NCBI GenBank assembly: GCA_030704615.1
Contig: CM060733.1
Location: 47,120,001-47,184,000, forward strand
Direction: 5' to 3'
Length of the DNA stretch: 64,000 bases
Source of the DNA: Takakia lepidozioides
Lineage: Eukaryota; Plantae; Bryophyta
Position numbers and translations under genes: made by a program. Below are positions 3,170 to 20,816 of this stretch, piece by piece (position 1 is the stretch's first letter; each line of letters opens with the position of its first letter). The notes below the pieces were generated by a model. That model made no database searches. It was not told the origin of the DNA and saw only the letters and a list, made by a program, of their open reading frames with translations.

Positions 3170-4314
3170 GGCTCGCACACGGAGTCCTTCACGAGACTCT
3201 CACCGTCAGAAGGGTGCTCGCTCACAAAGGTTTGCTAATCCCAAACAGTAAACCGTGAGGACACGGCTTTTTGAGAGGGGGAGGGGTAAATGTTAGAGGG
3301 CTGCTTGGGACTTAGACGCTTTTACGGGTTCTGTGGGGTACCCTTAATTTTTGCGCAAACTGAGACCAACAGGAGCCTTAGGGGTGGCAACAGCAGGCTT
3401 TAGGGGGATTATACAGCCTGACACAGCTTTAGACAGCCCGACACATCTCCACACAGCTTTACACAGTCCGCCACAGTTACGCACAGCTTCACACAGCCCG
3501 TCACAACCAGTCACAGCCGACACAGCTCCACACAGTTTTACACAGTCCGCCACAGTTACGCACAGTTTCACATAGCCCGTCATAGCCAGTCACAGCCGTC
3601 ACAGCTTCGCACAGCCCAACACAGCCCGACACAACTTTACACAGACAGTCACAACTCGGCACAGCTTGACACAGCCTGTCACAGTACACGGGGGACAGTT
3701 ATCATTGACAGGGAAGGACTGTGAGGGAATGACATCTGCAGAGGGAACGTGTTACTTCAGGGATGACGGTTAGTTAGTTAGGTGGTTAGAACAGCTTGCG
3801 GGCAGATAAGGAGAGCGACAACGAAAAGATGATCACTTCACGGGGAGCGCTTCTTGGTCAGGCAGAAGAGGAGATCAGGCGGAGAGCAAGAACGAGAGCA
3901 CAGAGAAGGAGGAAAGATGAACAGTAGATGCTTATTACATGCAAAGCTGTAGTGATACTGTAGGGCAGATTAGAGTCACCATGGCATTGGCCTGATACCT
4001 GATAAATCATAATCTGATACTTATTCGATACAATCACACTGTGTAGAGAGACATGAGTGAAGCTGTGAAATGAATGCATGATTAACTGGAACTAAGTAGA
4101 TACTGAAGCAATCTGATGCTTCAGTATCAGATAAGGTAAATTGATAACATGAAGGCAAGAAGGAATACAAATGGAAAGCACAACCATGATTCACTAGTTG
4201 CAGGTCATGACTGATAGTTTTGAGCGGGCTGAGTGCTTAGAGATATTCAACTCTTCTATCTTGGAGTTTCCACCTCGGATAGCGAAGGGATGGGTTAGTA
4301 AAAGTCGTTCGACA
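3170..4314 (-). mobile_element. LTR-like repeat, copy C (left boundary uncertain, may extend to ~2950)
   Basis: Colinear with 1-1051, including the CACAGC-rich tract (~3410-3685) and the ...gtcgttcgACA end. No TSD identified. Confidence 0.5.
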
Positions 4315-5889
4315 CAGACTATCAAGAACTGCGTACAAGCCATGCTACAATGTCATGCGATTTCAAACGGACAGAAAATATTTCTTGCTCGTGTTTGCTC
4401 TTTCTTATTGCAAATTAGGCCAAAGCGCTTAGAAATTTTTCATAGGCTCTTTGTGCAGGGGAATAGAAAGGATTTCACGTGTGAAGTTTCCTTTGGACAA
4501 AGTTATCGGTTGAATCCCACCTGTTGCCTCCGCGTGAACAGCCTTTTGTGCTGCCATCACAGGTCGATCAGGTTTTTTTCTCTGAATGTTTCAATGAACT
4601 GAGGTGAAATGTGGTGTTGGAAAAAAGCCCCCGGTCACGTAGGGTGGTCAGCGATGTCAGCATTTGCAATGATGATATTGCGAGTGTGTCAGGCCTCTTA
4701 GCCCCTGATCAAATTGAAGAGACCAATGTTGCTGGAAACAGTTTGGGACAGACCATCCAAGTGACACCTGAAAATGTTGCTTCACTATACAGAGACATGG
4801 GATCTGAGGAAGGTCATCCATGTCCCACGGAGAACAATTTCGGTGAAGATACAAAATCAAGTGATGATGAGGACGTGTAGTTCCTGGAATGAGGTATCAC
4901 ATTCCCCAGAACTGCCTATTACAATCTGAAGTATATTAGGGCTTTGTTCACGAGAGGAATGCTTTGTTCAGCCTCAGACGTATATGAAGGGCTATGTTTT
5001 CACATACTAGATGTCTCTTTGGTTCCTTGATTTTTATTAAGGGCTTTGTGAGGCTGACACAAAGGAAGGGTGGGGGTGGGTTTAAGCAGGTGACATTGGT
5101 GGTCGTCAATTGTGATGGCGTGTCATCTGTGGGCTCAGCAATTGTGCACGCAATTCTTGTGCAATTCTCGTATTTTCTGGGAGGTTGAGCTTCATGTCCG
5201 GCCCCCTACATGGATGGGAGACTGCAGGGGGGAGTGAGAAGGGCCCAAAATGGAGAAGCCATACATGTTGGTCGCACATTTTCAGAAGGGGATATTGCTG
5301 GTTTTAGCTACTGGGATGAAGTTGTTGGTGGAATGGAGTGCCAGACCTCGTCATGTGGACAGCATAACAGCAGGCTGTCGGTTTGTGCGCTGAAGGTCCA
5401 CCCACGTTGTTGGGCCATTTTTCTCATGACTTTTGGTAGGTGCCTTGGGACTTGTTTGAACTCTATGGCATGTAGGTCTTATTTCTACCAGCTCGGAGAC
5501 TCTCTCACATTTGGCTGGTCTATTTGCTGCTTGCAGAATGTGTTGCGAGGCAGCAGAAGGAGAAGATACCATGTAGTGGTGGGCTAGAGCAAAGACTACT
5601 GGCTGAAGAAACCACCCTTGTTGAGTATATCTGCTGTATATATATTTTTTTACAATGTAAGTGAAGCACAATTATGTGCTTGGTGCATGGACTGTTCATT
5701 TGTTGCATGTCTTTGTAGTGTCTTATAGGCCATGGTTAATCCATCCTGGCTGAGGTTCTCTCCTCGGGTGGGACACATGATGTTCTCCCCTTGGGTGCGG
5801 TCAATGAGTATTAAGGCTTGAATAGTGGGTGGACGCTATTATCACGGTTACACATGTGTTCTCTTAACTGTCGTATGTAATGTGCCTAC

Positions 5890-6030
5890 CATTTCATGGG
5901 TGTTGTGGAGTGCGATGCTTGCAGGGTATGCACAACAGGGACATGGGATGGAGGCTTTGGAGACCTATGAGCAAATGATGGGGGAAGGGGTTCAGCCCGG
6001 CCACATCATGTTTGTGTGCATTGCAGGCCT
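5890..6030 (+). pseudogene. PLS-class PPR gene fragment
   Basis: Translation VLWSAMLAGYAQQGHGMEALETYEQMMGEGVQPGHIMFVCI is one typical PPR motif, with no extended ORF. Confidence 0.65.
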
Positions 6031-6453
6031 AGCAGCCCTGATTTAAATCAGGCACCTCAACCATCAGCGTAGCTACGGCGTGAGCCCAGCCCCGTGAGCC
6101 TGGGAGCTGAGCTCACGCTTCAGGGAAGCGTGAGCGGCATGAATCTGCTGGAGAAGCAGGTCCTATAGGCGAGGATTGCAGGAAGAGGGCCTATTACCGT
6201 GGACAAAACAAAGGAGGCCACCATGCACCATGTCTGCAATGCGTGCCAAAAAAGAGGAATATGTAAATATGGCAGATTTGAGCTCAGAATGATTGACACA
6301 GTTTATTTCAATCCACAGAGAGACGCTTACAATGAATCGCAAGTGCATTTGCCCTGGTTCCGTGAACGAAATGTATATGTTTGTCATAAAATGAAAAGTC
6401 TTCACACGGCAACCTGGAAACCAGCATGGGAAGCGGGCATGGCTCGTATGTGT

Positions 6454-9400
6454 TCAAAGAGAAGTTGGCGGAGCTCTACGCGAGGTGTCCCGCTGCAGAA
6501 GGGTGATGACTTCTCCGTAGCCTAGTGTGGCTTGGTGAATGAATTGGTCTCTCTTACCGTCGCAACACATAATTACAAGGTATATGTAATATTGATGCTT
6601 GCAGGGGACCCACTTCCCTCTCATGCCGAGAGCGCCCTCACGCATTGTTACAAAATCCAGACAAGTGCACGATGGGAAATTCCCGATGGTAACCTGATAT
6701 TCTTTGGCATGAAGAACTGAGCCAATTGACAGCACTGTGTAAATCCGTCCATACCCCGGGGAAGGGACTTCGGTGATACGAGTCACCCTAGCCTGCAAAA
6801 TTCTAGCCGATTCCATCTTGCATTCGTGATCTGCACCCGAAGCAACACGGCGCACTGTTTTTCCATCTCTTTTTGTTGGGTGGGAGTCGGCACCGGGTGG
6901 AGGCATTGTCGGAGCATGTGGCACATCTGTGCCGACAGTGCATAAGGGCACCACCCGGGACCGTGCAAGACAAAACCCTCCCTCCTCCAGCATGCTTATC
7001 TCGGTTGAGGACAGCGATGTCCCAATTTTCACAGGCCAAATTGCGGGGGGAGGGGGCTTCATTATCACGGAAGGACGAACTGTTCCCTTCACGCATCGTG
7101 CCATATCGTCTGGGCAGAACCAAAACTTGTGCTCTTTTGACTCCCCACTATGGTAAGGTCGGAACAACCCTGTGAATGTTGGAGCTGGAGTCCCCCTGGA
7201 GCCTTTGCATATTTTTGATTTGCATTTCTTGAATGAGGGGGTCCGAATTGCCATGCAAGCCACTCTAGATCCCGGTGGGGTGCGTTCTATATGCCAGTCA
7301 CTATCAATGCAATCAGATTCCTGCACCATGGCCACCACCTCCTCCAATGGGATTTCCGCTGCTATGCTTGCATGTTCTGCACCTGCTCCACAGGAGGAGG
7401 ACCCACCTGGGAAGGGGCCGGCACAGGACTTAGTCTGCACTGGAGACACCTTTGGCACAGAGAAATTGACCCTGTCTGGCCTATGGGAATCTCCATCTGA
7501 CCCTGGAAGAGTGTTTAATTTCCTTTTGCATGATCCAAATCTTTCCTCGCCTTCCAAATGGGGGAGCCTGGATTGCAGAGGGGAGCCTTCAGTGCACCTG
7601 TTTAGAGCTCTGGCCATCTTTGACGGGTCTCCGGACCTACTCGCAGCCCTTAGCATCAACAAAGTCGTATCGGGGCCCTTCCCTCCACCCCGTCCCATCA
7701 GAAAATTGCGGTACCTGGTTTGTTGTGTAAGTGCCCGCACCATGTCATCAGCAGTGGCCACATACAAGTCACGACCTGCTTTGGTAGACTGTTGCATCCA
7801 GGCGTTGTGAACAGTCTCTGCCAAATTACACGATGGCATGTCGGCCAAGTCCTCCAAGGACATGTCCTGCAGGAGGCATTGCATGGAAATGTGAGGAAGG
7901 AAAAGAAATGGTAGAGGTTCTTCAAGTGACAATCGAACAACCCCAAATGAACAGGCACGATGCAAAGTGCAATTTGTGTTTAAGGAAAACTTGTGAGGCT
8001 TACCGTCGTCATGAAAGCTCCCCACTGTCTGTACCTGAAGTGCCAGAAAACCAACCAGTCCTCCAACTCCTTCAGGTGGATACCTGTAGCAGCACCAGAG
8101 GAGAACCACCAAGCCCGGATTGCCTGGTAAGTGCTCTTAGCTTCTCCCATTGAGGTGGCATTCTTGTACTTCAGACAGAGCCTTCTATGCTCCAACTGAA
8201 GGTCAGGGCGAATGCAGCGCTTTGTATGACGTGCCAGAGATTGACTCCAATGGAAGAGGCATGTGCGCTCCCTATTTTCCATTGGGACCCTAGGATCCCC
8301 CGAACCAAACACGCGCCGCACTGCATTGAAATTTGCCTGTGCACTATCAGCCATGAAGCCCGCAAAATTTGTGTTCTGTATTCCATTGCGCTGCATGACG
8401 GCCAGGAGGGAATTCCACATGAGCATCTGGGATTCAGTGTCCTCCGACTGCATATCACAAATTGCTATGGAGAGCACACGCTGGTACGCTGGATCATACA
8501 CATGGCACGCCATGGTTGTCCAACCCTTCACCCGTTTGCAGTGATCAAACATTAACCAACATTTAGCCAAATCTCCTCCAGGTTGCATTCGGCGGACAAT
8601 GCTCACACCACTGCCTTGGCCCACAGCGGACATCTTGAACAAATACACTTTGGACGAGCCCTGGCCAGGGAACATACTGTTTTGAATGAATTCATAGCGA
8701 CTCCTCCGTTTGAGGTCCATAATGTTGTCCATGAATCCAGCAGTGCCTGTGCCCATTCTGAGTGCATTCACCTGGTTTCGAATATTGGGAGAGCTCAACA
8801 CGGAGAAATGGTCCATGACTGCCTCAAGGGAATCTGCATCCAGCATTGGCTGTGTCGCATCCCCTTCACCCAGTATGTGTTTTTCCAGGAATGCCTTGCT
8901 AGCTGCAAGCGCTATAGCAGAAGGTGTTGCACAAGGGGCATTGTGGAACTCTTGCTTCAGTAGATTTCTAGCGATGTCCACGCTATCCCTGCAACTCCCT
9001 TTGGACACAGGATGCTCGTGTGCACCCATATGAATGCAGGCACGAGTCATTGTCTTGCATCGATGTGCCACCTGATACATACGAGCGTGGCAAACAGAAA
9101 CACAGGACGGGGAAAGTTTGCAGAACCTGCACACAAAAGTATTGGTCTTGGGAGGTGCAAGCCCTGGGGTGAAAGGATTCAGGGGCACACCTTCCCACTC
9201 ACTTTCGTTTGGCTGAGCGCTGTTTCTCAGCCGAGGGCAAGAAATATTCAGGCACTTGCAATGCCCAACGCAAACCGACCTCCGAAATTTCAAGCCAATG
9301 TCGTTATGGATGTTCGACGTTTTTGTCCTGCACCAAGGATGTCCGTCATGTTTCTTGTCCATGCCCTGCAGAAGCCCAGCCAGTCCACTGGAAGACGTGG

Positions 9401-10034
9401 GAGGGTTGAGCTCAAACAAGATGTCCCCATCAAACTGAGCTGGCACGTATTGAACCCGTTGCACTGGAAGGGACTCCCAATCAACAAAACGTAGCTCGCT
9501 CTTGCACCCAGGCACACCTGCGAGGGCTTTCAATTTTGGAATGACACTTGTTATCTCTTGCAATTCGTCATCATGCAATAAGGGAGTTTGCACTGGCGGA
9601 GGAATCTCAGAAACATCCTCCGAGGACGAGTCCGAAAGAGTCACGAAGGTAGTGGATGTGCTCACCTCTTGTTTCACAGGAACTGTGCCCTTCTGTTGCA
9701 CGACCGATGCTGCAGTGCCAGGGGTAACGACTGATCCTGCTGATTGTCTTCTCTCTTTTCCAAGGACACGGTATGTTCCTGGAAGGACTCTCCACTTCCT
9801 TCCACACTCGCCAACCAAGGGTTTCTCCAAGTGCCCAGAATCCAAATTCCCATCATCGTCATACACCTCTTTCTGAACAAGCAGAGAACCCAACTCCAGC
9901 GGGAACACTGTAACCAGCTCATCCTCATGAACAACTGCATACCCATCGTCGTCTGCAGTGGCAGTCAGTGGAAGAGTACCTGCATTGGAATGGAATCGAG
10001 CGAGTGCATCTCGCTCCCTCGACATGTTTTCCAT
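6454..10034 (-). CDS. Mutator-type DDE transposase with GCM-like DNA-binding domain and C-terminal SWIM zinc finger (~1150 aa; 5' end uncertain)
   Basis: ORFs 7980-10448 and 6454-8112 join in phase 0 through a GT-AG intron 8003-7867 (ACG|gtaagc ... ctgcag|GAC). Motifs: LMFDHCKR (D1), FMADSAQA (D2), CLFHW (CxxH), CNLAETVH (E), SWIM CTCLDF...CKH, GCM-like PWCRTKTSNIHN...RRSVCVGHCKC...HEHP. No stops or frameshifts. Confidence 0.85.
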
Positions 10035-10967
10035 CACTGAACGAAACTGGCGATTCAGAACGGAATCCCCGAACTGAGAGCCCGTAATTATCGAAAGTGG
10101 AAATACCACCAGCAAACTGAGGTCAACAAGGGTAGCACCAAACCAAAGGCTGCCGGCGATGCATGCCAAGGATGTAGGGATGACGTGCACCTTCACCTCC
10201 CACCAACCAGAAAAACCGTTTTGAAAGACCAGAGCCACAAGAAGCCGTGCTGTTTTTGGATGGAAAACAAACCCTGAAAATGACATGAAACCATCCATTA
10301 TGAAATGACGGCAACAACCCTGGAGAGCAGTAAACAGGAAGATCCGATTGTAATGAGATTGTGTTGCGCCAGAATAGCACAGAACAAACACTGACACTCC
10401 AAGAGATACCTCGCACGAATGTGTGCAACACATGGTCATATCCGACAAAATCCTTTATACCGAATGACCCCATGGGGACGGTCACGGCATAAAAAAAACC
10501 ACAGGGCATGCAGTACAACACACGTGGATGCATATGTGAAGCATAACAATTATTGCGAATCTGGAAGAACTGCTCGGAATTGAAAAAGCACTACATTTCT
10601 ACGGCACATTCGAATTTGAAAGAAGGCAAGGAGGCCGCCATGTATTGGCAGGCGGCGAAGTACATCTGACATATATCGCAAATGCATGCAACGGATGTTC
10701 TTTTTCTTCGGCACTTTATTAGCTGGGTAATACAAAGACGCCAAAATGGATGAATTCCGTTCGCACACAATATCAACACCCGCATCCAAATACGGTTGAC
10801 AACGTCCATTTTTATTTTTGTTACATGCGATACCAGGACTTGTTGCAAACGTCAAACTGGAGAGCTCCAGGGGCATCGTGGGGAGCCCTTGTTTCCAGCG
10901 GAGGAGAAAGAGAAGGAAGTCATTATACTTCACGAGTTCTAGAAACAGGAATAGAGCTAGATATAGA

Positions 10968-13900
10968 ATGAGGATGGAAAGAGTGGAGGAAGAGGAAAAG
11001 GAGGAAGAAGAGGGAATACAGGAAAGTGTGGCGATGGAGGAGCAGGAATCTGGAGAAGAACAACAACCCAACATAGTTCCAGGAACAGGCGAGGAGGACA
11101 CTGCGTCTGAGGGAGAGACAGACGACATGGAGGAAGATGTTGACACTGGCCTCACGAAGAATCTGACCACGGGAAAGAGGAAGGGGGAGAGGCTCACCTA
11201 CATAGTCGGCGAAGAGAGCAGCCCGAAGCGGAAAGGGTCCCCGGCAACTGGGGAGTCTTCTCGAGTACCTACGAAAAAGGTAAAATCTACAGGACCCACA
11301 TTTGTGAAGAATTCGGCTTTCAATGGCAGGTATTTGAGAAAGAAAGAACCATTCAGTGGCAGCTCAAACAGTGTGCGTTGCCGCACACTGTTTGAGCTGC
11401 ACAAGTCACTGTTTAAGGGTGCAAAATTCTTCCTTCAACGACACCTTTCTGAGGATGAAATGAACCCTGCACTTCCAACTCAAACAGTGTGCGGCAACGC
11501 ACACTGTTTGAGCAAGTCTTCTCAATGTTTTAGGGTGCAAAATTTGGCCTTGGAGTCAGTTATCTGCGGGTGAAATGAACCCTTCACTGCCAGCCCAAAC
11601 AGTGTGCGGCAACGCACACTGTTTGAGCTGAACATTTCAATGTTTTAGGGTGCGAAATTTGGACTTCAGGGGCACCTTTCTGAGGATGGAATGAACCCTG
11701 CACTGCCAGCTCAAACAGTGTGCGGCAACGCACACTGTTTGAGCTGAACATTTCAATGTTTTAGGGTGCAAAATTTGGACTGCAGGGGCACCTATGTGAG
11801 GATGAAATGAACCTTTCACTGTCAGCCCAAACAGTGTGCGGCAACGCACACTGTTTGAGCTGAACATTTCAATGTTTTAGGGTGCAAAATTTGGTCTTGC
11901 TGTCTGTTATCTGAGGGTGAAATGAACCCTTCACTGCCAGCTCAGACAGTGTGCGGCAACGCACACTGTTTGAGCTGAACATTTCAATGTTTCAGGGTGC
12001 AAAATTTGGACTTCAGGGGCACCTATCTTAGGGTGAAATGAACCCTTCACTGCCAGCTCAGAAAGTGTGCGGCAACGCACACTGTTTGAGCTGAACATTT
12101 CAATGTTTCAGGGTGCAAAATTTGGACTTCAGGGGCACCTATAATAGGATGAAATGAACCCTTCCCTGTCAGCCCAAACAGTGTGCGGCAACGCACACTG
12201 TTTGAGCTGAACATTTCAATGTTTCTGGGTGCAAAATTTGGACTTCAGGGTGACCTGTTTGAGGATGAAATGAACCCTTCACTGTCAGCCCAAACAGTGT
12301 GCGGCAACGCACACTGTTTGAGCTGAACATTTCAATGTTTCAGGGTGCAAAATTTGGTCTTGCTGTCTGTTATCTGAGGTTGAAATGAACCCTTCACAAC
12401 CAGCTCAAACAGTGTGCGGCAACGCACACTGTTTGAGCAGAGCTTTTCAATGTTTTAGGGTGCAAAATTTGGTCTTGCTGTCTGTTATCTGAGGGTGAAA
12501 TGAACCCTTCACTGCCAGCTCAGACAGTGTGCGGCAACGCACACTGTTTGAGCTGAACATTTCAATGTTTCAGGGTGCAAAATTTGGACTTCAGGGGCAC
12601 CTATCTTAGGGTGAAATGAACCCTTCACTGCCAGCTCAGACAGTGTGCGGCAACGCACACTGTTTGAGCTGATCATTTCAATGTTTCAGGGTGCAAAATT
12701 TGGACTTCAGGGGCACCTATAATAGGATGAAATGAACCCTTCACTGTCAGCCCAAACAGTGTGCGGTAACGCACACTGTTTGAGCTGAACATTTCAATGT
12801 TTCTGGGTGCAAAATTTGGACTTCAGGGTGACCTGTTTGAGGATGAAATGAACCCTTCACTGTCAGCCCAAACAGTGTGCGGCAACGCACACTGTTTGAG
12901 CTGAACATTTCAATGTTTCAGGGTGCAAAATTTGGACTTCAGGGGCACCTATGTGAGGATGAAATGAACCCTTCACTGTCAGCCAAAACAGTGTGCGGCA
13001 ACGCACACTGTTTGAGCTGAACATTTCAATGTTTTAGGGTGCAAAATTTGGTCTTGCTGTCTGTTATCTGAGGTTGAAATGAACCCTTCACAACCAGCTC
13101 ACACAGTGTGCGGCAACGCACACTGTTTGAGCAGATCTTTTCAATGTTTTAGGGTGCAAAATTTGGTCTTGCTGTCTGTTATCTGGGGGTGAAATGAACC
13201 CTTCACTGCCAGCTCAGAAAGTGTGCGGCAACGCACACTGTTTGAGCTGAACATTTCAATGTTTCTGGGTGCAAAATTTGGATTTCAGGGGCACCTGTTT
13301 GAGGATGAAATGAACCCTTCACTGTCAGCCCAAACAGTGTGCGGCAACGCACACTATTTGAGATGAACATTTCAATGTTTCTGGGTGCAAAATTTGCACT
13401 TCAGGGGCACCTATGTGAGGATGAAATGAACCCTTCACTGTCAGCCCAAACAGTGTGCGGCAACGCACACTTTTTGAGCTGAACATTTCAATGTTTTAGG
13501 GTGCAAAATTTGGTCTTCAGTGTAACATTTCTGGGGATAAAATGAACCCTTCACTATCAGCTCAAACAGTCTGCGGAACCGCACACTATTTAGGCAGAAC
13601 ATATCAATATTGAAGGGCGCAACCTTCGGCCCTCATGGGCACATATCTGAGGATGAAATGAATCCTTTACTGCCAGCTCAAACAGTGTGCGGCAACGCAC
13701 ACTGTTTGAGCAGAACTTTTCAATGTTCTTTCCCTGTGAAAATCGGGAACATAGGGCAGGTCCGTGAGGATCAATGAACACTTACCTGGCAGCTCAAAGA
13801 ACACTTACCTGTTTGATCCCACTTTTTCATGCATCAGTCGACGTTTCATTCCTCTCTTATAAGAATTTGAGTGAACAACCTTGCAGGAGAAAATGCAAAG

Positions 13901-16900
13901 TGTGGCGGATGAGGTCCCTCAGGGTCAGGGGAAGGAGACCATAGTTGATGTTGACGATGAGTTTTATGAAAGCAAAGCCGCTGAGATGCTGGGGGGTCAA
14001 AAGGTGAACTCTCAGCTTGTGGTTCAAAGTATGCTTGCTCCTGGTGGGAGGTTGAAGATTCCCCTGTGTAGGTTGGTTTCCATGCCCGTCATTCGTCCAC
14101 CCCTTGTCAAAGACATTCTCAAGCTGGAGGCCGAGTTTGTTCATGGGTATTTGGATGGATCCGCAGTCTTTTACGTTTCTACTAGGGATTCTAGAGGTAA
14201 CGAGCTCCTTGTGGATGAGTCAATCGTCGACTCCTGGGACCCCATTTGGAGACAGGTGAACGAATCCTTCGAACTTCTTCTCTCCAGGAAACCTTCCACC
14301 CAGGTATTCTCGGGGAAGATGTTTCACGTTTGGGATGACAACCACCGGTTGCTTGCATGGATGGCTGTCATTGGGAGGCTGCACTCACAGGAGGAAGAGT
14401 GGCATTACTCTGTTCGATCGATGGTGCTTGATTGTGACGACAACATGATGGGTCTTCTGACGGCAATGAATGATGTGAACAGGTTGGTTTCTCATTGTAC
14501 ATGTTGCACTTCTGGTTCCGTTCTTCCTTGATTCAAGTCCTTGAATTACATTCTGAAATTCAGATATCATTCTGCAGAGGGACGGAGACATCGCATGTCA
14601 AAACGAGTCTGGTTCACACACTGTATAGGATACAAAGGATCGGGCAGATGCCCTTGACCAACTTCAAGACCATCCTTTCGGCAGAGATGTATAAGAAATG
14701 CGAAAGCTCCAAGACTTCGGAAACATGGTACTCGTTGACCCGTGAGGCTTTCATGGAGTACATGTACACGGTGAGATACATCTTCCTTCATCTGGCCTTT
14801 CCATATTCCTGCTTCCACATGTTTGTTTCTGTCTGTCTCCCTTGACCTTGGATTGATGCAACTCTCTTGCATTCCCTTGCAGCAAGACATTGCAGATGCA
14901 GGGGAGCGTGGCAAACTGGAATACTATAGCTCTACCCCTGAGGAGAGAAGGACAGCAAAGGGGGTTGAAAGTCACATCCAGAAGGAGATGAACGCTACAA
15001 GAAGGACAATAATGAGTGCTTTTGTGAAGCAGTTGAGAATGGCCGACCCATCATTCGGGCCGCAGTTTCTCCTGGAGATAAAAAACCATTATAACAAGCC
15101 AGGCAAGCCGGAGATGGCCCAGGAGAAGTTGCACAGGTTGTCTACCGCCGTCGTGTCTTCTGAACAGAAGGTGAAGTGGCTACAGATATGGAACTCCGAT
15201 CCCACAGTTAGGGATACCCACATGTTCCCAAGGCCAGAGAAAGAGAAGAAGACCCAGCGTGTCGTTCCTGTCAGTGACAATGTGCTGGACACCTGGCTTC
15301 ACAAGGCCACTTACTGGAGCCAGGTGTGATGTCCTCTCGTATCTCACTTTCTTTTCTCTTTTCCTGTCCTTCTCTTCCCATTGCCTCTTACATTCGCTGT
15401 GACTGTTTTTGGGTTCATTCTTCCATTTCAATTGTTTTGCAGTTGGAAGAAAGGGCCCGATCGGTTCTGCATACTCAGCTGGCTGACTATGGCATCACTA
15501 TGACAGCTCCGAAGGTCTCCTTCGAAGCTTACATGAGGAAATGGAGAGCCACAGTGTGGCACTCTGGTTTCTTTAGAGAGTTCAGCAAGGAGGGTGGCAT
15601 CAGTCGAACAAATGAGCTTGACCAGCAGGAAAAAGGAGAGGAAGCCTGGAAACGATGCCTTTACAGGTGCACACCCTTGCACTCTTTACTTGTGTTGTGG
15701 TTGCAATGTGTTGTGTGGCATACTGTTTAAGGGGGTCTTCCTGGTGTGTTGAAAAAGCTGGGACACAATATGTGTACTGGAAAATGAGGCTGTGTCTGTT
15801 CCTGCAGGTACATTAGGTTTGTTCTCTTGGAAGAGAATTGCTTGGACAAACATCCAGATTTCGTGGACCTTTGGCTTGTCCCTGCTGGCAACCAGACCAT
15901 GTTCACTGCTGGGATCTTGCATGACTGGGGCCCAGACCATCTTTCTTCTTGTGGTTGGTATTTGGATTGCCCTCCTTCAGAGACCCCAGCTGTAGAGTTG
16001 TCTTTGAGGAGAGAGAATGACCGTATTGCAGCCACTGCCGCAGCAGCGGACCTCGACATTCATGAGCGTAATCTGAGGACTCTTGCAGAGAAGGAGCCTC
16101 CCGCTCAGGATACCCCGGGTAGAGGAAGAAAGGCAAAGGGAAAAGATGTTGCTGGTGTTGTGGGGAAGGGAAGGGGTAGAGGGAAGGTGGCACAAGGGCA
16201 GGGAAGTGTTGCAGCTATTGGCCCTGTGGAGCATGTCCAGCAGACTCCACCGCATGGTAGGGGATCCGGGAGAAAAAACAAGGGGGTGGTTGATCCCAAG
16301 GACCCGTACCATGCAGTGGAACATCCCACGAGGGTCATTCGTCCAACCAGGTTGGAGATTGCCAACGTCGGGTTCCTTGCCATGATGGAGTCGAAGAAAT
16401 CTGATTACAAGGGCGAGCCATCACCAGTGTGGGAGAGGATTGTCGAGTTCCTCAGCACGGTGCGTGTTCTCTTTGGGTTCTGTGGCTTCTGCTCTCTTTG
16501 TCTGCTGTGGGCATGGATCGTTTATAAACTTGTCAGAATTCCATTGTATTTTTGTTTGCAGGCTAAAATGACCAAATCGTGGGTGAACGGGAAGGAGAAG
16601 CCATATGCAGCGGAACTCATCATCTTGGACATCCCTGATGGGTTGGCAGTCCCGGATATCCCTCCATCGGGTGCTTGTCCGGGTTGGAATGCATTTGATG
16701 AGCGCTACTGGCGGTGGGTTTTTTCCTTTTGCAACTTCTTCCTTTCCGATGCAGGTGTTTTGGTTCTCATCCAGTCCATCGATGTTCGGTGTCGCCGTGC
16801 CCTTGCCAGCTATTTGAAAGCCTCGGGCATGAGAGTCGTGAAGACATGGAATTGTGTGAACAGCATGTACCTTACGAAGGGGGATCGTCCGGGAGAGATG

Positions 16901-17621
16901 GTGAGTTTCCCTTCTTCTTCCTCTTCTTTTTTGTTCTGGGATTGTGTTGTATAGGTCGCTCGAACTCATATGTAGGGGCCCGATTTTATTTTGGTTCTTA
17001 GTTCCTTGTGGATGTCATGTTCGCAGACTCGTTGTTTGAAGCTGTTTGTCTCGTCCGGGTGCATCCACCAACGACTCCGGCCGGCATTACGGAGTTTGCC
17101 ATCACTCACGGGGGCAAGTTCATAGATGACAGGACAGATCCTCCCACGGATGACATGCATCACAACTACGTCGACAGCAACTTGTGCTTGCGAAGGGGGA
17201 ATGGGGTTCCTTGGAGAGGGGCGAGGGAGAGGAGCCCGGCTTTCATTCAAACGATTGTGGAGTGCTGCACCTACACAGACGCCAGAGTTCTGGATTTGTC
17301 GATGGGCACAGGTTCGTCTCTTCAACATTCACATTTCATGAGGTTTGATTGAGCTTGCACTTTCAGCACTTTCCACCGTTCCGAATGTGTCTTCAATGTC
17401 TGCTTACTTCATTCTATTCCACTGCAGGTGCTTCGTACCACGCTTGCAAGGCCAGTGCGCGACATGTCTTTGGGATTGAAGGGGATGCTGAGATTTACAA
17501 GAACCTCCTGATGGGTTTGGGTGGACACACTTCTCAGGTCCTTCCGAAGCCCCGTCCCGCTGATACTGGTACAGAGGAGACTTCTGACAAGGAGCTGGAC
17601 TCCGACTTTGCCTGTGAGTAA
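10968..17621 (+). CDS. Multi-exon protein: acidic N-terminus + ParB/Sulfiredoxin-like domain + C-terminal beta-class N4C/N6A DNA methyltransferase-like domain (~1086 aa)
   Basis: Phase-consistent GT-AG exon chain: 10968-11279, 13887-14482, 14578-14770, 14883-15323, 15443-15666, 15808-16459, 16562-16900, 17002-17311, 17428-17621 (3261 nt; start codon and exon-8 acceptor least certain). ParB-like IPLCRL...R...FHVWDDNHRLLAW. MTase motif IV-like LIILDIPDG precedes motif X/I RERSPAFIQTIVECCT...RVLDLSMGTGASYHACKASARHVFGIEGD. Confidence 0.75.
11360..13730 (+). repeat. Tandem array of 21 x 115/116-bp units, each with an ~18-bp-stem hairpin and a variable ~25-nt segment
   Basis: Core cagctcaaacagtgtgcg-GCAA-cgcacactgtttgagctg with loop starts at 11378, 11494, 11609, 11725, 11841, 11956, 12072, 12188, 12304, 12419, 12534, 12650, 12766, 12882, 12998, 13113, 13228, 13344, 13460, 13576, 13692. 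Degenerate remnants on both sides (to ~13820). Confidence 0.97.
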
Positions 17622-18260
17622 GTTCAACCTGTGCATGCTTGCATTGTTGTTTCAATATCGAGAATCGCTGTTCTTGAGGCAAAGTGCACATGGGAGACAT
17701 CCTCTTCGTTGGACTTGTGCATTGCATCATTGTGTTAAAAATGGGATTTTGTGGACATGTGTAGGAGTCCGCGTGCTTCCACTTGCCCTCCTGGGCTATC
17801 ACACCTATTTGGACTTGTTTTCAGTCCTCCTCGGTCTTGTGTGCTACCTGTCTATGCGGAGGCACTCGCAGCAAGCATGTCCGTTCATGGCACTCAGAGT
17901 CCACCTTGCGATGGCCTTCGTAGAACACGTGGTGTTGGGGCCAGAATCTTTGTAGATGACATAGCACAGGAGGTGGACACTGATTGTGATGACTGCGACA
18001 CTTGATATGAAGTATTCTTTTGGTTTAATTCTGGGACAAATTTGAAATGGGATGGTTGTGTGTCCTTATTGTCCTCTTTGCAATGTGTGCGTGGAATTCA
18101 CATTCATGGTTCCAAACTATTGTTGGAGATGGGGGTTGCATGGACTGCCCGGATTGTTCCTTCAATATATTTGTTGTTTTGTGGACCTCACAGACTTGAG
18201 TACATTGCAAAAACAAACAAACCACTTTGTTCTCAATTCTCAATTCTCCTCACATCAACC

Positions 18261-18313
18261 CGCGGAAATAGGTGACACCACTCGGAAATAGGTGACATCC
18301 GCGGAAATAGGCA
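18261..18313 (+). repeat. Subterminal direct repeats CGGAAATAGG(TGACA) x3 of the MULE-like element
   Basis: cgcggaaataggtgaca / ctcggaaataggtgaca / cgcggaaataggcac read directly. Confidence 0.8.
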
Positions 18314-18416
18314 CTGTTTGCATGCTGACGTGGCGTGAGCCTGTGCTGGGCTCACGCTTTCCTGGGCTCACAGGCTCACGCCTCCAGGCTCACGGAATAG
18401 CACCCCCCCCTCAACC

Positions 18417-19000
18417 ATGACCACAGCTTCTAAAAGAGGATCAAGAGAGGGAGTCCATAATGCCTCTTCTGGCTCTTCTGGGACTGTGAAGACGCTTTGT
18501 GAGGCAGGCAGACTGAAAGAGGCTTTACAACCTTTAAACCAAGGAGCATTTCAGCAGATTCAGATATGTATGTCTGTCTCTTGCTTAAGTGCATCAAATT
18601 GAAGGGTCTGGAAGCTGGAAAGCAGGTGCACACTCACATTATCCAAAGTGGATTCACGCCAAGTGTTTTTCTCCTCAACACCCTTGTGAACATGTATGTT
18701 AAGTGCAGGAGCATCATGAATGCACACCGAGTGTTCAATGGAATGCCTCAACGAACTTTGATCACGTTGAATATAATGTTGGCAGGATTTAACATGGGTG
18801 TGGTAGGAATGCTTTGGAGACCTATGAGCAACTGCATGTATGCCAAATGTGGGTGCATCGAGGATGCAAAGGAAGTGTTCGACAGTATGGCTGAACGAGA
18901 TGTGGTGTCGTGGAGTGCGATGATTGCAGGATATGCACAGCAAGGGCGCGGATGGAGGCTTTGGAGACCTATGAGCAATGATGCGGGAAGGGGTGATTCC
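18417..19000 (+). pseudogene. Decayed PLS-class PPR gene (N-terminal part)
   Basis: MTTASK...VKTLCEAGRLKEAL, then after a frameshift YVCLLLKCIKLKGLEAGKQVHTHIIQSG...NTLVNMYVKC...MYAKCGCIEDAKEVFDSMAERDVVSWSAMIAGYAQQG. Frameshifts and internal deletions are present. Confidence 0.8.
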
Positions 19001-20816
19001 CTGTGGAAAAATAGCTCCAATAAACCTGCATGGGTAGATGGTCAACTGGAAGCCGTAGCAGCAGCGGCACAATTGATAAAATCAGGCAATGCTAATCAAA
19101 GCACTTTCTTCAACACATTTCACTCTATTTTCCCCTCTTATCATAATCGCCCTAAATTTTCATGTTTTAAGAATTCTGCAAGTTAGCTGGTTGAGTGAAC
19201 CTTTGATAGTTTGGAGTGACTTTGACATGATATTGCCAAAGTGACAATAGGAAAGTATCCAGAAATAGGTAACAGAGAGGAGAAGCTATGGAATGAATAC
19301 TTTTCTGAGCCCAGTCAATGGTGGGACAACCGTCTTGGAAGGTAAATGCTTTTGGATTACAGAGTGGTAGATGCAATTGAGAATAGGAACTAGTGTGATA
19401 AGTTGAGTTGGGTGTTTGCTGGAACAAATCTAGGTTGCCATTGTCAGCTGCTAGCAACAATGCAAGGATGTATGCATGATTTGTGCAGAGGCATGAATAG
19501 CTGAAGGAGCAGGGATAGAGTGTCATCCAAGAGGGCCAGATTTCAAGCTCCACATTACTTATGATTCCCTGTGGAAGGATAGCTACAAGAAACTTGCATG
19601 GGTAGATGGTACATAGTTTGGAGTGATTTTGAGTGTTAGGTATGGAGTCATGCTCCAAAATAGGATTATAGAACCACAAGAAGTCATGAATCTTGGCATA
19701 TTAGCCTGACCACCTGGATGTGGATGGGGCATGCCTTGCCAAGTGGGCTACCTGGGGAATTAGAGGTAAATGAAGCATTGGGTTAAACTGCCTACCACAT
19801 ATGCAAGCAAAAGTTATGACAGATAAAATAGGTATGCCATGAGCCTTTCTGGTTGACATTGACGTTGAATGGTATACTCTAATGCGGCAGTTATACCAAG
19901 TCATGACCTACCACTGTGCACAAAGAAATGACTCCATACAGATTTGGAGGTGGCAAACCATATAGAATGTTTTAAGTGTATCTTTACTCCATTCATCTTG
20001 CAAGCGCTTCTTGGAAAATTAGGATGGGGTTCCATATGGTCCACCTGCTTGATGTTTAACATTTCATGTGCCAAAGCAAGCTTCACATTGTTCAAGTGGT
20101 GGCTCATGTGGCACCAATTATTTCCTAAGCAAGCAAGCATGTGTCAAGCAAGACCAGGTTGTGGAGGCTTAACAAATATTAAATGAGGGGGAAGCCTCTT
20201 CTCCGAACAATTTGTGGGGCTTCTGGCATACGGAAGGACTCATCTGCCACCTCCCTGAAATCCAGCTCTGGGTGGACAAATGCAGGCATATATTGAGTCA
20301 GATGAAGACATGGCTGAAAACACAAGAAGAACCTGTGATTTGATGCTGTCCTTCGTAAAATGTCTACAAAACTAGCTCTGTTTGTGTAGCATTATTTTAC
20401 ACATCAACCTTAACCTATTTGGGCACACATCAATTTCAGTTTTTGATTGATTGGTATGGGTGGTGTCTGGAATTGCAGTTGGAGCTGGCTCTTCACGCGG
20501 AGCGCCTAACAAACATGGAGCTGCACAAAAATATCACTAAACTACGAACTACCGGGGATATAGCATAGCACAAAAAAAATATGATCTGATCTGATCTGAT
20601 CTGAGCATCTATGGTTAGCAAGATGTTAGGGCTGAGTAGAAGGTCATGAAGGTGTCGGTTTACTCCTTGTTTTGGATTCACAAAGCTACTTCAAATGATT
20701 TACTCATCGACTTTGCTTGCCCCTGCATTATTATGAGATGCAGTTTCAAATCACACTCAATGAAACACTATTTGCTCACCAAGAGATCTTTGGGGACACA
20801 CAGACTGCAGTCAATA

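Follow-up and report, generated by a model that had tools for sequence, protein, structure and literature searches.

Phased palindromes in a predicted intron of a moss Mutator-like transposon as candidate DNA sites for the element's own ParB-like protein

The window analyzed here is a 64,000-nucleotide (nt) stretch of the Takakia lepidozioides genome (assembly GCA_030704615.1, contig CM060733.1, positions 47,120,001 to 47,184,000 of the forward strand); genome searches covered a 326-Mb plant assembly. The window holds one copy of a Mutator-like DNA transposon, designated family A, whose second gene (plus strand, nine predicted exons) is predicted to encode a ParB/Srx-fold domain followed by a methyltransferase-like domain. 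The predicted first intron of this gene (11280..13886) contains an array of 21 palindromes (11331..13727). With slightly better than even confidence, we propose that this array works as DNA, presenting phased sites to the element's own predicted ParB-like protein in a self-recognition role. The intron by itself is ordinary; it is the sites, and the protein predicted to read them, that make the locus interesting.

The bounds of intron 1 had been proposed in an earlier note on this DNA, and they are borne out by the sequence and by comparison of copies. The donor, AAG/GTAAAATC, lies at 11279/11280 and the acceptor, TTGCAG/GAG, at 13886/13887. Both are in phase 0, they are 2607 nt apart, and by a simple pattern the last TTGCAG-type acceptor in the interval is also the only one. 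AAG/GT occupies the same alignment column in all seven 5′ regions aligned. In the final 60 nt of exon 1, identity to five diverged copies is 0.80–0.83; in the 61 nt that follow it is 0.30–0.44. Reading past the donor meets a stop after 4 to 97 codons, indicating that coding constraint does not continue beyond it. The ratio of nonsynonymous to synonymous substitution rates (dN/dS) against four diverged copies is 0.30–0.36 for exon 1 and 0.14–0.21 for exon 2. The acceptor motif is present in 10 of 10 sister copies, and CAG or TAG (YAG/G) in five of five further copies, counts that are partly circular because acceptors were located by motif search beside the exon. Intron 1 measures 2201–8099 nt across 14 family-A sequences (L015 and L019 were left out, their exon 1 lying outside the fetched stretch). 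The seven other predicted introns are as short as the note had said (95, 112, 119, 141, 102, 126 and 116 nt), and all are GT-AG.

An intron is also found here in more distant homologs. Family B, with an exon 2 at 50% identity and a homologous exon 1 (BLASTP E 1e-8), has a phase 0 intron 1 of 439–444 nt in seven of 11 stretches and of 716 nt in one. In family C the intron measures 346–359 nt and begins with a GC donor in the four copies, of 11, for which both sites could be located (for example CAG/GCAAG at L051:4732); a similar GC site occurs in family D at about L096:11385. Metagenome contig L114 repeats the layout of the window: its exon 1 encodes a K-L-Y-F motif and an acidic tail, and between this exon and a ParB exon lies an intron of 2684 nt that contains 12 palindromes. 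This contig has no DNA match to the fetched loci of the Takakia genome, and its palindrome motif is absent from that genome.

If there were no intron 1, transcripts could begin within the array or beyond it, with the ATG at 13893 as start codon; this ATG has an A at −3, and diverged family-A copies retain it. However, purifying selection acts on exon 1, whose donor is conserved, family B lacks an ATG at the corresponding position, and the annotated liverwort homolog P0154 is a single protein of 1207 amino acids with a low-complexity N-terminal tail before its ParB domain. We consider such a gene structure highly improbable. Contigs from four runs (two only presumed to be RNA) showed no joint at any predicted intron of the element or of a family-B copy; cover was thin, and the result is neutral. 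A gapped two-motif probe for an intron-less copy gave one match in this genome, an unrelated chance site. Comparison of copies, rather than spliced reads, is the basis on which we regard intron 1 as very probably spliced out, and any transcription of the gene would then carry the array into the pre-mRNA.

The array lies inside the intron, as the note held, although its claim that the exons bracket the array exactly was loose, since 51 nt precede the array and 159 nt follow it. Each palindrome has 18-base-pair (bp) arms, a 4-nt spacer and a CG-N4-CG core; mean spacing is 115.7 bp, and the first unit (11360–11399) is inverted. Tandem Repeats Finder (TRF) reports 20.7 copies of a 116-bp period over 11331–13727, filling 92% of intron 1. 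Across family A, intron 1 carries 16 to 48 units, and unit number shifts fast between near-identical copies. The main array of families C and D is placed elsewhere, between the transposase gene and the start codon of the second gene. Family C has a second array in intron 5, the sites of family B are scattered over introns 1 and 5, and family D has a single site in intron 2 and one further site near the transposase end. Intron 1 would thus be one of several noncoding places where sites can pile up without breaking the protein. The family C arrays (L051:3180–4373) also contain an interleaved second palindrome type with a different core, which likewise recurs at periods of 32, 53 and 85 bp.

The note had gone further and suggested that the array RNA is co-expressed with the protein, on the strand that gives GCAA tetraloops, like intron-hosted clusters of small nucleolar RNAs (snoRNAs) or microRNAs (miRNAs). 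The intron placement of this proposal is supported by comparison, and the functional RNA cluster is not. An intron that releases hairpin RNAs of these kinds, or hairpins that feed silencing by small interfering RNAs, would be consistent with two observations: each unit folds far better than shuffled sequences (z −4.0 to −6.4), and 19 of 21 loops in the window copy are GNRA. On the gene strand of the window array, 18 of 21 loops are GCAA, one is GTAA, one is GAAC, and the inverted first unit reads TTGC. The GCAA loop stands for the window copy and was rejected as a conserved feature, with GNRA loops in 13 of 17 units in L039, 4 of 16 in L043, 0 of 22 in L033 and 0 of 17 in L037. Moreover, loops occur in both orientations, between units and between subfamilies, and the two strands fold better than shuffles about equally. 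Stem mismatches read on the gene strand comprise 167 G-U, 169 A-C and 123 other pairs in units that are not independent, with no G-U bias. Six Rfam matches to the array all score far below the gathering score, and the box C motif TGATGA is absent from both strands. The stems, at 18 bp, are shorter than a plant miRNA duplex. Known intron-hosted clusters share with this locus repeated hairpins inside an intron, but here there are no boxes, Rfam match or strand preference, and the arrays are not tied to introns, those of families C and D being found beyond the coding span. Finally, the helical phasing described below is meaningless for separate RNA hairpins. Taken with these points, we give a hairpin RNA product very little credence.

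The pattern of conservation points instead to DNA. Between family-A subfamilies the arms are 0.93–0.96 identical, whereas the 79–81-bp spacers are 0.53–0.56 identical (shuffled, 0.44–0.45). Exact matches to the 22-mer number 3175 across the genome (control, 0), and the family-D motif is found at 3532 places. Families A to D each have their own arms around the CG-N4-CG core; of the 946 perfect palindromes in the fetched sequence, which was chosen for these elements, 669 have this core. Among 80 metagenome loci that carry a relative of the ParB exon, 14 contain a total of 30 CG-N4-CG palindromes, whose arms are different again, compared with one in resampled sequence. A few AT-rich metagenome loci show versions of the palindrome decayed to TG/CA.

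The spacing of the sites follows the DNA helix. Spacings cluster at 53, 64, 85, 96, 106, 116, 127 and 138 bp, and the window mean corresponds to 11 helical turns at 10.5 bp. The 27 modal spacings fit a 10.62-bp period with a mean cosine of 0.60, a fit reached by none of 2000 random sets; with the 24 distinct modal values, four of 2000 random sets do as well. For six dominant spacings, each from a different lineage and selected once the data had been seen, the values are 10.95, 10.01, 5.00, 13.03, 6.04 and 11.99 turns, each within 0.05 turn of a whole number (4 of 100000). Phasing of ∼10.6 bp is seen also in contigs of other organisms. Symmetric sites on one face of the helix are a signature of cooperative protein binding to duplex DNA, and nucleosome rotational setting could contribute to the phasing. 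Because the sites are strand-symmetric, the arms are conserved and the spacing is phased, the palindromes can be read with good confidence as double-stranded DNA sites for a protein.

If the array were instead a neutral satellite, expanded through slippage at a palindrome able to form a cruciform, unit number might be expected to change quickly between near-identical copies, as it does. However, the arms are kept while the spacers turn over, unrelated arms share the core and the 10.6-bp phase across organisms, and even the dispersed, nontandem sites of family B are mostly phased. A neutral origin is for these reasons a very remote prospect.

The candidate reader is the product of the gene that hosts the array. 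Bacterial ParB binds palindromic parS, and exon 2 (13887..14482, plus strand) encodes what the predicted structure indicates is a ParB/Srx fold. The AlphaFold model built from 81 rows has a predicted local distance difference test score (pLDDT) of 92; a first fold with seven rows (pLDDT 35) was discarded. This model matches ParB-CTPgS with Z 8.2 and a root mean square deviation of 2.2 over 89 aligned residues, and the 14 best rows are all ParB, Noc, PadC or KorB. Atlas matches for exon 2 are DUF3723 and ParB_N, and DGNHR with the Asn that follows it is conserved in relatives. A profile search with the ParB exon returned 756 clusters, with named members in Riccia and Adiantum. Several other searches were negative: a word-based homolog search with exon 2 among longer proteins (0 of 598 candidates), Pfam on single exons of the second gene, and PDB sequence searches with the ParB profile, the exon 7 profile, P0154 and P0155, which gave nothing useful.

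The C-terminal domain (exons 7–9; 16562–16900, 17027–17311 and 17428–17621, plus strand) resembles beta-class amino-methyltransferases. Its profile, which includes liverwort homologs and is dominated by their rows, matches DpnA at E 3e-5 (mostly the motif I half) and CcrM at E 0.003. PF01555 is detected in four of 26 liverwort homologs, and in P0154 below the cut-off. As in DpnA, CcrM and the Pfam family N6_N4_Mtase, a motif IV-like segment precedes the motif I-like segment, which is the order of the beta-class enzymes with their Rossmann fold. The catalytic beta-class consensus is [DNS]PP[YFW] (DPPY type). In contrast, motif IV is DIPDG in the window copy and varies as DIPDG, DIPNG, DLP[ST]G and DMP[ST]G, a D-x-P-[DNST]-G pattern that lacks the aromatic residue in all rows covering it. 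The domain may consequently be inactive, binding rather than methylating. Exons 3–6 (14578–14770, 14883–15323, 15443–15666 and 15808–16459, plus strand) encode a middle region with no Pfam match.

The resemblance to bacterial ParB-parS, Noc and KorB includes the ParB/Srx N-terminal fold, a G-x-x-R-type motif and a gene situated beside clusters of palindromic sites. Unlike these systems, the protein has a methyltransferase-like fusion and belongs to a eukaryotic transposon with spliceosomal introns; two genes were seen in the element, with no ParA-like gene among them, although no search was aimed at ParA. ParB-HTH fusions in chlorophytes and chytrids, as well as phage-derived clades, are described by Iyer et al. 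(PMC4738411), and the ParB-linked eukaryotic methylases of that account are, as far as the description goes, not those of land-plant Mutator elements. We found no description of a ParB/methyltransferase gene in plant Mutator elements, or of its sites, in a literature search that left out most subscription papers, Repbase reports and supplements (the supplement of PMC4738411 may list such proteins).

The closest functional parallel is VANDAL/VANC of Arabidopsis, likewise a Mutator-like element with an accessory gene (PMC5735166, PMC10398659). According to PMC5735166, the motifs of VANC21 are arranged as dynamic tandem repeats in introns and intergenic regions of VANDAL21, and VANC21 binds there. 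The two systems share family-specific motif arrays in noncoding parts, including introns of the accessory gene, with fast gain and loss of units. They differ in that the VANC21 target is reported as the 9-bp nonpalindromic YAGTATTAY (PMC5735166), in contrast to the 22–40-bp palindromes with a common core and 10.6-bp phasing described here, and in that the accessory protein here has a predicted ParB fold and a methyltransferase-like domain. Membership in VANDAL/VANC is not claimed, given these domains and the lack of a Pfam match for any exon. By analogy, the array can be viewed as a transposon self-recognition array with a predicted ParB-type reader.

These comparisons suggest a mechanism whose later steps are progressively less secure. 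With intron 1 removed and the palindromes acting as duplex sites, the binder would be, with reasonable likelihood, dimers of the ParB-like protein, as the fold, the linkage and the family-specific arms suggest. Sequence-specific recognition of the element by its own protein is a tentative final step, for which we would give less than even odds. By analogy with VANC, which attaches to repeats within introns and between genes of its own VANDAL family, the most likely outcome would be anti-silencing; loading and spreading in the ParB style, also drawn from analogy, is possible. A ParB clamp would account for an element-wide reach.

Several observations weigh against this reading. The Z of 8.2 is borderline for a common arrangement by the tool's own scale, and the Foldseek E is 0.04. 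No DNA-binding domain or helix-turn-helix (HTH) was identified in exons 3–6, and the non-canonical motif IV means that the methyltransferase may be inactive. Intact CG-N4-CG palindromes are missing from 66 of the 80 metagenome loci, including nearly all AT-rich ones. Of the 27 modal spacings, four (50, 111, 112 and 121 bp) are near half turns or off phase, and the six dominant spacings were chosen post hoc. The L114 intron is in phase 1, not 0, and marks the same region rather than a proven identical site.

The methylation record also gives no help to the proposal. For the families pooled, the CG/CHH transition ratio is 1.36, compared with 2.41 for other repeats, but family A alone gives 2.35–2.94 between subfamilies and decays at CG as other repeats do. 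In addition, 31 of 35 changes at the core CG in 872 family-A half-sites are to TG or CA. A methylation-protection footprint was rejected as support, since the pooled low ratio is not reproduced in family A. Dead copies would decay in this way in any case.

The same decay fits a different role for the same protein, in which it binds the array as a repressor or copy-number sensor, in the manner of KorB autoregulation, and is not an anti-silencer. Sites in the gene's own introns and between divergent start codons would suit such a role, and KorB is among the fold matches (Z 7.3–7.4). However, intron 1 arrays range over the 16 to 48 units given above without evident cost, and we consider repression quite unlikely.

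Alternatively, the transposase could be the binder. Under this explanation the palindromes serve the transposase or a host factor, for transpososome assembly or transposase-driven activation, and the ParB-like protein does something else. Phasing and symmetry name no binder, the family C and D arrays lie between two divergent genes, and family D has its further site near the transposase end. A preprint reports that AtMu1 transposase activates in a sequence-specific manner (10.64898/2026.08.24.746577). Against this, the element ends carry a different repeated motif, common to families A and B and in the more usual location for transposase sites, whereas the internal palindromes differ between A and B and lie mostly in or just upstream of the ParB-like gene. 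A transposase or host-factor array seems to us unlikely.

Returning to the ParB-like protein as reader, the proposal matters because of a question that the Discussion of PMC5735166 presents as open: how a single transposon protein that recognizes specific sequences can relieve silencing over the full length of an element. If the proposal is true, a ParB-type protein and phased palindromes would provide a concrete load-and-spread mechanism for element-wide anti-silencing, a bacterial partition-type module would have been reused by a eukaryotic transposon, and the families would constitute a natural set of orthogonal protein-site pairs. A more elaborate version, which we advance as a doubtful speculation, is that MULEs of seed-free plants carry a ParB/parS-like system in which a nucleotide-gated clamp loads at family-specific phased arrays of palindromes and slides along the element, and the fused methyltransferase writes or reads a mark other than 5-methylcytosine at CG-N4-CG. 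Such a system would confer an epigenetic identity on each family and element-wide anti-silencing.

The note did not say that the gene belongs to a transposon. The element that carries these features spans 6066..18408 (left end 6065 or 6066; no strand assigned), or 12.3 kb, as delimited by homology to sister copies, and it has hundreds of copies in the genome. The match between copies begins at 6065/6066 and stops at 18408–18411, and the flanking DNA is unlike between copies. Identical 10-bp target-site duplications lie at 6055..6064 and 18409..18418 (both read on the plus strand), and a 10-bp duplication is present in all three copies with both ends in view (the window copy, L013 and L025). 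Target-site duplications of Mutator-like elements (MULEs) are 9–11 bp. A genome search with exon 2 gives 457 candidate matches, of which the 40 that were scored are 99–100% identical. The lineage is abundant, with at least four families (A to D) and thousands of sites in this genome, and has relatives in a liverwort and in ferns.

On the minus strand, two long frames at 6454..10283 with a predicted intron near 8000 (placed approximately) and a SWIM-like finger near the C-terminus form a MULE-type transposase gene; MULE transposases are of the DDE type and often carry a SWIM finger. Support for this assignment comes from one indirect source, the Atlas, in which feature matches to PF10551 clusters score 0.91–0.93 and all 10 of the best matches that have a family assignment belong to the MULE family or clan; a direct Pfam scan gives SWIM only (E 0.58). 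There are no long terminal inverted repeats (TIRs) at the element ends, which have only a short imperfect inverted motif and repeated 8–9-mers. This end structure fits a non-TIR MULE, not classic Mu. The short inverted 8–9-mer repeats, located at 6066–6140 and 18330–18408, are those common to family B, and a run of six C residues is present at the right end. The repeated 8–9-mers are candidate transposase sites.

The earlier note took an acidic open reading frame (ORF) as the first exon. Its donor end holds, but exon 1 is longer at the start and occupies 10857..11279 (plus strand), encoding a basic RKRRKSLYF peptide and an acidic tail. Constraint is evident in frame over 10857–10967 (dN/dS 0–0.21), upstream of the first ATG at 10968, and all seven changes in the 37 codons 5′ of this ATG are synonymous in L033 and L037. 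In families C and D an ATG lies 23–24 codons before a common L-Y-F/Y motif. In family A a CTG stands 22 codons before the motif, flanked by A at −3 and G at +4; the same context, GTC-AAR-CTG-GAG, recurs in family B nearer to the motif. The simplest reading of these sequences is that translation is likely to start at a CUG in strong context at 10857. A further intron 5′ of the exon 1 region is possible. We also considered a 40–42-nt mini-intron at 10797–10838 that would join an ATG at 10747; such an intron would be very short, and copies differ in this region by indels that break the frame. The basic peptide, which resembles a nuclear localization signal, is common to all families.

The window copy probably cannot itself make an active protein, because exon 8 is shifted out of frame by one base near 17032 and, at about 14341, a G-to-D change gives DDNHR where other copies have DGNHR. 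Of 15 sequences tried, nine gave full models, and three of these (L025, L027 and L049) have an unbroken 1115-codon frame when spliced, with the L027 donor read one base off by the anchor used. The other six full models have one-base indels or stops.

The site of insertion (5822–6046 and 18503–19186) is a decayed gene that we take, from its ORFs, to be of the pentatricopeptide repeat (PPR) type, and numerous X3 and X4 run contigs map onto these flanks. Over 10564–11411 the depth of X2 run contigs is 145–195, compared with about 0–20 over most of the element. One X2 contig links 11306 to 12786 on opposite strands and may represent a short nonautonomous derivative. To the left of the element are short tandem repeats (243–423 and 3413–3684) and a 383-bp duplication (694–1434), which are probably parts of a retroelement. 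Nested insertions between families are frequent in the loci fetched. At the right flank of L030, for example, a family-A element directly abuts a family-D palindrome and has likely inserted into the array of another family.

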